Assembly: GCA_018826905.1 (NCBI GenBank)
Contig: JAHJYC010000004.1
Span: 207,988 to 271,987 of the forward strand
Length of the DNA: 64,000 nucleotides
Reading direction: 5' to 3'
Source of the DNA: Patescibacteria group bacterium
GTDB taxonomy: Bacteria; Patescibacteriota; Minisyncoccia; Phycocordibacterales; Phycocordibacteraceae
Part shown: positions 42,581-43,545 of the stretch, one piece after another
Numbering within the stretch: the first letter of the stretch is position 1
How the letters are laid out: every line of letters begins with the position of its first letter
Made by a program: the position numbers and the translations under genes
The notes under the pieces: generated by a model
What the model saw: the letters and a program-made list of their open reading frames with translations, nothing else
Database searches by the model: none
Told to the model about the DNA's origin: nothing

Positions 42581-43033
42581 CTATGGACACGCAGTGTCAG
42601 TGTTTGCTGGGGCTGCTGAAAGCTCAGCCTTCTGTCCAGTTGAGTCCAAACACCAGTACTTAGTGTTGTCACTAATCAACTGAGAGGCAACCATGTAGGT
42701 GTCAGATGTTGATGTACAAACAATTGTTCCTGCACCGTTTGCAGTGTCAATTGCAGCGATTGCGTTTCCAATTGTTGTGTTTGCAAACAACGTATCTGCT
42801 GCTGAACAGCTCGCGCCTGCTCCTGTATTTGCCACTCCGTAGCTGTTGCTGTTCTCGCTGTAATAGAGTGCTGCCTGAGACGCAACAGAGTCAGTGTTTG
42901 CCTTAATGGCAGCATCATTTCCCTTTGAGCGTGCCGTGTTGAGTGAGGCAAGCACAACGGAAGAGAGGATACCAATAATGGCGATAACAACGAGGAGCTC
43001 GATCAAGGTGAAACCGCGCTTCATGCTAGTCAT
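42581..43033 (-). CDS. pilA: Type IV pilin (major-pilin-like)
   Basis: [43 protein letters not shown]: canonical class III signal peptide and alpha1 helix; C-terminal Cys pair. Confidence 0.8.
   Translation of the reverse strand: [150 protein letters not shown]
42905..43015. repeat. 111-bp perfect direct repeat, copy 1 (pilin N-terminal helix coding region)
   Basis: Identical to 43381..43491, checked by direct comparison. Confidence 0.9.
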
Positions 43034-43059
43034 AAGAGTAATCTGAGTTAGCTAATAAG

Positions 43060-43545
43060 CTACGGACACGTTGTTCCTGTAGTGAAGTCAGTAGTTCCCT
43101 TTTTACGCGCTCCTGTTGAGTCAACACAGAAGTAGGTTCCTGAGGTTGAAGGAAGTGCAGATGAGATCACGTATGCTGTTCCGCTTGAGAAACATTTTAC
43201 GTTTGCAGAACCGTTTGAAGTCTCAGCATGTGCAATTGCCTGGCGAATTGATGTATCTGCATAGAACATGCTCGTTCCTGAAGTAGGACAAGTTCCAATT
43301 GACACCGCACCTCCGTATGCATTGCTGTTGCTGTCGTAGTACAACTCTGCCTGAGTTGCAGCACTTGAGAGATCTGACTGAATGGCAGCATCATTTCCCT
43401 TTGAGCGTGCCGTGTTGAGTGAGGCAAGCACAACGGAAGAGAGGATACCAATAATGGCGATAACAACGAGGAGCTCGATCAAGGTGAAACCTTTGGTCAC
43501 GTGTCCTGAACGAATATGTCCAAGTCGTGTAGATGCGATATTCAT
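43060..43545 (-). CDS. Type IV pilin, second tandem paralog
   Basis: Its first 37 mature residues are identical to the preceding pilin; a long annotated leader (a GTG start at complement(43498..43500) would give [10 protein letters not shown]); the C-terminal domain diverges and carries a Cys pair. Confidence 0.75.
   Translation of the reverse strand: [161 protein letters not shown]
43381..43491. repeat. 111-bp perfect direct repeat, copy 2
   Basis: Identical to 42905..43015. Confidence 0.9.

Follow-up and report, generated by a model that had tools for sequence, protein, structure and literature searches.

Type IV pili are the main known organelles of host attachment, motility and DNA uptake in the ultrasmall, host-dependent Patescibacteria. 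The tandem filament-subunit genes flaA and flaB of Campylobacter undergo concerted evolution, and the adjacent pilA paralogs of Pseudomonas stutzeri, pilAI and pilAII, have unequal roles. In the pilE/pilS system of Neisseria the donors are silent and promoterless and have no 5' constant region, and it is the variable region that is converted, at high frequency. In Moraxella the alternative pilin segments tfpQ and tfpI are inverted by a site-specific invertase, Piv, and are flanked by inverted repeats. Here we describe a further pair of adjacent pilin genes, pilin_up and pilin_down, which lie between pilC and pilD in a stretch of 64,000 nucleotides (the window) from a bacterium of the Paceibacteria/Parcubacteria group of the Patescibacteria, the ultrasmall candidate phyla radiation (contig JAHJYC010000004.1). 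The two genes have an identical segment of 111 nucleotides (nt) in common. We propose, at a probability of about 85%, that they encode two paralogous, full-length, functional major pilins of type IVa (T4a) kind that go back to an old duplication, that the DNA for the first part of their N-terminal helix (the α1 block) has been overwritten by gene conversion, and that the pair is co-expressed and is not a switch.

The closest functional analogue of this locus is the PilE1/PilE2 pair of Streptococcus sanguinis, and the closest evolutionary analogue is the concerted evolution of tandem filament-subunit genes, a process treated for prokaryotes in general elsewhere (PMC6053082). According to two papers on S. 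sanguinis (PMC4832360, PMC10628169), PilE1 and PilE2 are encoded in tandem, have an identical α1 region and mix stochastically in the filament. The likeness is close: there are two, sometimes three, adjacent major-pilin genes in one monoderm-type, secretin-less pil cluster, the α1 N-terminus is the same in both proteins with the differences concentrated in the exposed part, and one of the two leaders is unusually long, at 18 amino acids (aa) there and 19 aa for pilin_up here. Our two genes are likewise adjacent, 26 nt apart, with 37 identical residues counted from G-1. They differ in that identity is confined to these 37 residues, with globular domains that are 37% identical and leaders of 19 and 7 aa, and in that co-assembly, proven in S. 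sanguinis, is here suggested by the genes. The available excerpts of both papers make no mention of concerted evolution of the S. sanguinis pilins at the DNA level.

Both pilin genes are on the minus strand, arranged head-to-tail. Their open reading frames (ORFs) predict a 161-aa prepilin for pilin_up (43060-43545), with a 19-aa leader ahead of F1, and a 150-aa prepilin for pilin_down (42581-43033), with a 7-aa leader; both match the PF07963 N_methyl family (E = 3e-8 and 7e-9, respectively). The repeat, at 43381-43491 in pilin_up and 42905-43015 in pilin_down, is exact at 111 of 111 nt with a start-to-start offset of 476 nt, and the exact coordinates bear out the preliminary description of the locus, which had reported tandem pilin ORFs with a perfect direct repeat at this distance. 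It corresponds to 37 codons that run, in both genes, from Gly(-1) of the prepilin cleavage site to residue Ile36 of the mature protein, covering α1-N and the start of α1-C. Within the window this is the sole exact repeat, direct or inverted, of at least 30 nt, and the block has no third copy there with an identity of 60% or above; chance is effectively impossible as its source. The preliminary description went too far in stating that the C-terminal domains diverge completely. The two proteins align without gaps, at 55% identity across 132 aa, and even past the repeat 37% of positions are identical (39 of 106 codons), with four cysteines common to both.

The leaders, too, call for some revision. 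That of pilin_down had been given as MKRG, but its relatives read MTSIKRG, without an internal Met, and the leader is therefore taken as the full seven residues, MTSMKRG. The resulting 150-aa protein is not on record, the deposited GenBank call, in four contigs, being a 147-aa version that starts from the internal Met. For pilin_up a long leader and a GTG-initiated MTKG had both been considered. The long form stands, since its 19 residues are kept in relatives as MN..R[LI]GHIR.GH.T[KQ]G, and for the same reason the GTG start is unsupported. Below, W denotes the sequence of the window, and L- and P-numbers label related loci and sequences. The long leader of the first pilin (43489-43545, minus strand) contains a conserved His-containing motif, GH[IVLM][KR], which is also found in P0005, P0006, P0014 and P0020. 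It takes the form R[LI]GHIR.GH in W and MTLGHIKADRG or ..RRGHMKG in other species, and P0005 has it enlarged to a series of GHI repeats, MQLFKRIGHIIGHIGHRGHIGHVGHIKQGHRSG.

The source is a metagenome-assembled genome and one assembly breaks inside the repeat, so that one has to ask whether the repeat was collapsed or duplicated in assembly, or whether alleles of two strains were joined in a chimera. The break is found in L002, which comes from a separate assembly (GCA_018820165.1, contig JAHJOR010000007.1) and is identical to window positions 42917-49545. This contig stops at 42917, 99 nt into the downstream repeat copy, having already read through pilin_up, the spacer and the distinct second leader, and the break is a typical assembler stop at a genuine repeat. 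Both exact proteins are encoded in tandem in four deposited contigs, and the window corresponds, in reverse complement, to contig JAHJYZ010000001.1 (376 kb) of GCA_018826595.1. The tandem layout recurs in relatives of other samples and records, each with a repeat version of its own. Two strain alleles would, moreover, appear in the assembly graph as a bubble and not as genes in tandem. Because both proteins are carried by four contigs and the separate L002 assembly agrees with them, we regard an assembly artefact as excluded, its residual likelihood being negligible; the artefact that the preliminary description had named among the findings that would overturn it is contradicted by five contigs and by the relatives.

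How, then, have two genes so different over most of their length come to have 111 identical nucleotides? The answer comes from comparison with the orthologous loci, which were found through homologs of pilin_up at 93% (L004/L005), 85% (L006) and 80% (L007/L008) aa identity. The gene order pilC, pilin_up, pilin_down, pilD is found in all of L004-L008, pilin_down orthologs are present in L004, L006, L007 and L008, and the tandem pair is conserved in L004/L005, L006, L007/L008 and L031. The 37-residue block is identical in amino acids across all twelve genes, but its DNA is not. Within a genome, the two paralogs differ over the 111 nt at 0 positions in W, 6 in L004, 8 in L006 and 2 in L007, whereas between any two genomes there are 15-21 differences, all of them synonymous. 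Expressed as synonymous divergence (dS; this and omega were calculated by the Nei-Gojobori method, NG86), the block values are 0, 0.18, 0.32 and 0.07 within genomes and 0.8-1.5 between them. For pilC, dS between genomes is 1.3-2.5, at which synonymous sites are saturated. The C-terminal domains have the opposite relationship, with orthologs 77-93% identical in amino acids and paralogs 32-40%, whichever genomes are compared. Omega for the orthologous C-terminal domains is 0.04-0.11, and both globular domains are kept by purifying selection.

The duplication must predate the separation of these lineages, because each paralog has its C-terminal orthologs across four lineages in which synonymous sites have reached saturation. 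This bears directly on the proposal that a recent tandem duplication was followed by very fast divergence outside the helix segment, with no gene conversion. Pilin globular domains do evolve fast, and the number of pilin copies varies from 1 to 3 among 25 related species, but synonymous sites in the block follow the genome and not the ortholog, and parallel independent duplications are very unlikely given the 77-93% identity of orthologs as against 32-40% for paralogs. For the clade of W we therefore reject recent duplication without conversion and give it very little probability overall; it is still a candidate for lineages outside that clade, such as L020 and L011.

A second proposal dispenses with recombination altogether and holds that the 5' segments stay identical under selection at the nucleotide level, be it on codon usage in a highly expressed gene, on mRNA structure or on a signal for translation. 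Genome composition does differ, with codon preference for T-ending codons in W and for C/G-ending codons in L007, which raises codon sharing within a genome. Within the same gene pairs, the codons of the C-terminal region serve as a control: there, outside the block, 49-64% of codons that specify the same amino acid are also identical in nucleotides, compared with 37/37, 35/37, 32/37 and 29/37 (78-100%) inside it, and the binomial P values for block against control are 7e-8, 2e-9, 2e-4 and 4e-3. Shared codon bias is ruled out by this control as the cause of block identity. Nor is any particular nucleotide sequence required in the block, since close relatives differ there by 15-21 synonymous changes. 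We thus consider nucleotide-level selection, like recent duplication, highly improbable.

The pattern has the defining features of concerted evolution and points to recurrent gene conversion limited to the invariant helix-coding segment, Gly(-1)-Ile36. Ongoing gene conversion, as put forward in the preliminary description, is strongly supported by the contrast between 0, 6, 8 and 2 differences within genomes and 15-21 synonymous ones between them, together with the codon control. We envisage that the 111 nt for the hydrophobic α1 helix, which would form the filament core, have been copied repeatedly between misaligned tandem genes by homologous recombination, with the leader peptides and the exposed globular domains held distinct by selection. 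The amino acids of the block are under extreme purifying selection, which could itself preserve enough DNA identity for recombination to start. The ends of the conversion tract might be set by the divergence of the flanking leader and variable-domain sequences, or by selection against altered domains, and deletion products of the direct repeat would be selected against. The direct repeat might also give rise, at low frequency, to deletions or duplications. The window encodes RecG, a recombination helicase, and LigA. The process resembles concerted evolution of the flaA/flaB type, in that adjacent paralogs for a polymerising subunit appear to be homogenised by intragenomic recombination and are closer to each other than to their orthologs. 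It differs in extent: most of the gene is homogenised in flaA/flaB, whereas here homogenisation is limited to a tract of 111 nt (in relatives, up to 155 nt) that reaches from the signal-peptide cleavage site to the onset of the variable domain.

A pair of pilin genes with a shared segment also invites interpretation as a device for antigenic or phase variation, in which a donor cassette would swap the exposed C-terminal domain by recombination through the 111 bp, either as in Neisseria pilE/pilS or by a deletion/duplication switch. A perfect 111-bp direct repeat is an adequate substrate for recombination, combinations of leader and globular type vary across the family (in P0007, P0008 and P0011 the up-type globular domains are preceded by a short leader, MNTKRG), and two loci, L013 and L014, have near-identical promoters, leaders and N-termini but unrelated C-terminal domains. 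Against this, both genes of the pair are full length, each with its own ATG start codon and leader; the segment that converts is the constant, helix-coding one and not the exposed domain; and the C-terminal domains are stable orthologs, with the low omega given above, across lineages in which dS is saturated. No hybrid was found, and five of five assemblies that carry the W sequence have one and the same arrangement. Truncated, silent or promoterless pilin cassettes, for which the preliminary description had suggested a search, are absent from the 64-kb window, inverted repeats from the locus (41000-46000), and matches to invertase or recombinase families from the ORFs scanned in the operon. 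A 60-nt degenerate pattern for the W/L004 block, which matched W, L004, L005 and L031 locally and so is valid, gave 0 matches in a metagenome contig collection; the population is absent there, and the result is uninformative on hybrids and on extra cassettes. Programmed switching is thus improbable, the suggestion of a pilin variation cassette in the preliminary description is unsupported, and we conclude that the pilin pair reflects an ordinary evolutionary process and not a programmed device for antigenic variation.

The comparison with the two established switching systems leads to the same result. With Neisseria pilE/pilS the locus would have in common RecA-type gene conversion between pilin paralogs with shared conserved segments (PMC4023411). 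It is unlike that system in that both copies are complete and of expressed type, only the constant region is converted and the variable domains are stable. Neither silent donors, nor conversion of a variable region, nor an upstream G-quadruplex (G4) was found, the 94-nt spacer between pilC and the first pilin containing, as read from its sequence, no four G- or C-runs with G4 spacing. A Moraxella-type invertible switch was rejected in the same way: the repeats are direct, the region 41000-46000 is free of inverted ones, and the scanned ORFs of the operon include no recombinase match.

Variation of the kind cited in favour of switching is seen on a longer timescale, among the pilC loci of the 25 related species, whose genomes are titled Patescibacteria, Paceibacterota, Parcubacteria or Kaiserbacteria. 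At nine of these 25 loci, pilC is followed by two or three pilins of major type. Exact 5' repeats between the paralogs at the nine loci measure 155 (L020), 122 (L011), 104 (L010), 98 (L018), 63, 62, 44, 41 and 29 nt. The start lies at the Gly(-1) codon, or no more than 6 nt away, in seven cases and further in for the other two (L031, +12; L023, +63). In all, seven further loci with several pilins have the 5' pattern of the W pair, and an eighth has only 29 nt in common. Past the repeats there is an abrupt shift to differences that are mostly non-synonymous. The test for concerted evolution was run on the pairs of the W clade; the other loci provide the repeat pattern only, which does not distinguish old, converted duplicates from recent ones. 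The L013/L014 case (locus positions 4750-5390) is the clearest instance of exchange between genomes. The two pilC genes are about 83% identical in DNA, and promoter, leader and N-terminus are 96-100% identical, but the globular domains of the pilins are unrelated (about 40-50% nt identity), a juxtaposition that marks an allele replacement whose crossover lies in the conserved 5' block. Since leaders and domains come in different combinations across the family, and in view of L013/L014, crossovers do fall in the conserved block in the course of evolution.

Co-expression of the pair is suggested by the layout of its transcription signals, which a scan for consensus promoters and terminators missed and which alignment and folding revealed. 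A candidate conserved pilin promoter, recognised by alignment, lies on the minus strand at 43594-43637. It consists of TTATCCACA (43629-43637), a 29-nt spacer of variable sequence and TACAAT (43594-43599), begins 3 nt past the pilC stop codon and is present ahead of pilin_up only. In essentially all related loci the order is TTATCC(A/C)CA, a spacer fixed at 29 nt in length but variable in sequence, CGTACAAT, and a block of the form AAGCGGA...TTAC(C/T)CRTAA. The pattern TTATCCMCA-N27-31-TACAAT occurs once, at this position, in 24 of 34 loci. The 26-nt spacer between the pilin genes (43034-43059, minus strand) has only a weak fold (-4.5 kcal/mol, z = -1.1), and no terminator, promoter motif or TTATCCMCA was found in it. 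Beyond pilin_down, a strong terminator- or attenuator-like hairpin with a U-run occupies 42517-42560 on the minus strand (-28.9 kcal/mol, z = -4.7; none of 200 shuffled sequences was as stable). It sits between the pilin_down stop codon and the start of pilD (ATG at 42515), ending 2 nt before pilD, and may both attenuate transcription past the pilins and mask initiation of pilD translation. Taken together, the shortness of the spacer (26 nt), the candidate promoter conserved ahead of pilin_up alone and the hairpin after pilin_down lead us to infer that the two genes are co-transcribed, on a single transcript that would run from that promoter to the hairpin.

The upstream element of this promoter deserves separate mention. 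TTATCC(A/C)CA equals the DnaA-box consensus, and its version in W is exactly TTATCCACA. TTATCCMCA occurs a single time in the whole window, and in nearly all related loci (L004-L036) the 9-mer is present once per locus of about 8 kb, at the pilin promoter; L023 and L026 have an extra copy ahead of the second pilin. A literature search found no paper that joins the DnaA box with pilin or pilus terms. In L024 (4709-5413) the spacer between pilC and the pilin is enlarged to about 700 nt by sequence added ahead of the conserved promoter (GTTGTCCACA...CGTACAAT). At the presumed start of the 5' untranslated region (43552-43590, minus strand) is a conserved block, AAGCGG(A)-N-TTAC(C/T)C(A/G)TAA-CCGC, that could form a short GCGG/CCGC stem (in L029 and L030, CGGAAT/ATTCCG). 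Folding of the alignment by RNAalifold gave no consensus structure for this block, and Rfam at its gathering threshold returned tRNAs only.

What would such a pair of pilins do? Both proteins have a class III signal peptide with G-1, F1 and E5, score above the curated cut-off of PF07963 and match solved T4a major pilins by sequence (Thermus PilA4, 6xxd; Geobacter PilA-N; Neisseria PilE; Pseudomonas aeruginosa PilA). The AlphaFold (AF2) model of pilin_up predicts a lollipop topology, with a predicted local distance difference test (pLDDT) score of 85.4. The same operon encodes a prepilin peptidase and assembly machinery (PilD, PilC, PilB, PilT, PilM and PilO). PilD would thus be expected to cut both prepilins, and since their α1-N segments are identical both could enter one filament, which might be mixed in the manner of the S. 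sanguinis PilE1/PilE2 heteropolymer and so present a mosaic pilus surface. On this analogy the two genes, transcribed together, probably give rise to two pilins whose cores are the same. Indirect evidence that both are made and share a filament comes only from the purifying selection on the two genes and from their probable co-transcription.

Two other pairs of pilins invite comparison. Legionella pneumophila PilA1 and PilA2 are 72% identical, with differences along the whole protein (PMC13170364). There, as here, two related T4a pilin genes are adjacent and both products are predicted to be major pilins, but for Legionella no identical block with a sharp boundary is described (PMC13170364). 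The TM7x strain of Saccharibacteria uses two pili, T4P-1 and T4P-2, for host attachment and motility (PMC11623550). Our locus resembles that system in being from Patescibacteria, in its small major pilins of predicted lollipop shape, its many minor pilins and its lack of a secretin; it is unlike it in that PilA1 and PilA2 of TM7x are in separate loci and serve separate filaments and machineries, with no tandem pair that shares a block of DNA (PMC11623550).

Several observations weigh against our interpretation of the pair. The exact ortholog pair is found in just four lineages, and in two of these (6 and 8 differences) the conversion would have to be older or partial. No recA was seen in the 64-kb window, and a Foldseek search of the PDB with the pilin_up model gave no significant match. 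Co-assembly of pilin_up and pilin_down is argued by analogy with S. sanguinis, yet the leaders here are 19 and 7 aa long, unlike the identical leaders of PilE1 and PilE2, and such a great difference might mean that the two prepilins are handled differently. In L. pneumophila just one of the two adjacent related pilins, PilA2, reaches the surface (PMC13170364), and an alternative by this second analogy is that only one of our pair is a real filament subunit, as PilA2 is in comparison with PilA1.

A wider proposal, which we put forward tentatively and rate as clearly less likely than not to hold in full, is that the pilus is a mixed polymer of two or three major pilins in which conversion of the α1 block would keep the subunits compatible. 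The block might then double as a recombination handle that shuffles leaders and globular domains within and between genomes and so diversifies the surface with which these episymbionts contact their hosts. The conversion we propose for the pair itself needs no new mechanism, the locus being the expected outcome of tandem duplication combined with strong constraint on sequence. Its interest lies in the picture of a clade of the Paceibacteria group in which many members have two or three major-type pilins, with filament cores that would be kept identical by recombination and exposed domains that differ. Mixed-subunit pili in this clade are a testable prediction. There is also a practical consequence, in that pilin repeats of 100-155 nt break contigs, as in L002, and can mislead gene trees made from pilin N-termini.

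The pilin pair belongs to a complete type IV pilus operon, identified by Pfam scan, all of it on the minus strand. In order of transcription it comprises pilM (49655-50806), a pilN-like gene (48921-49598), pilO (48373-48924), a 103-aa ORF (orf103, 48050-48361), pilB (46313-48046), a gene for a response regulator with a receiver domain only (45916-46353), pilT (44852-45919), pilC (43640-44848; T2SSF platform protein, PF00482, E = 6e-56), the pilins, and pilD (41733-42515; A24 prepilin peptidase, PF06750, E = 3e-23, and PF01478). Directly beyond these are four minor-pilin-like genes (41080-41760, 40538-41131, 40017-40541 and 39550-40020), three with PF07963 and one with a weak PilX_N match, whose N-terminal DNA is just 71-76% similar to the repeat; ligA comes after them. 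The ORFs scanned in the operon include no match to a secretin family, which fits a machine of monoderm or Patescibacteria type. The protein family is very large in Patescibacteria, its members being named Wolfebacteria, Kaiserbacteria and Pacebacteria in the sources.

Finally, three minor features of the window may be recorded. The receiver-only gene overlaps both pilB and pilT and is conserved in all related loci, and neither an output domain nor a cognate kinase for its product was seen in the operon. On the plus strand, positions 62115-62189 encode a tRNA-Ile with anticodon TAT (UAU), an uncommon bacterial means of reading AUA codons. A copper-handling gene set on the minus strand (23738-24958 and 31232-34536) comprises a multicopper-oxidase-like protein, an HMA-DsbD_2 membrane protein and an HMA-containing P-type ATPase.

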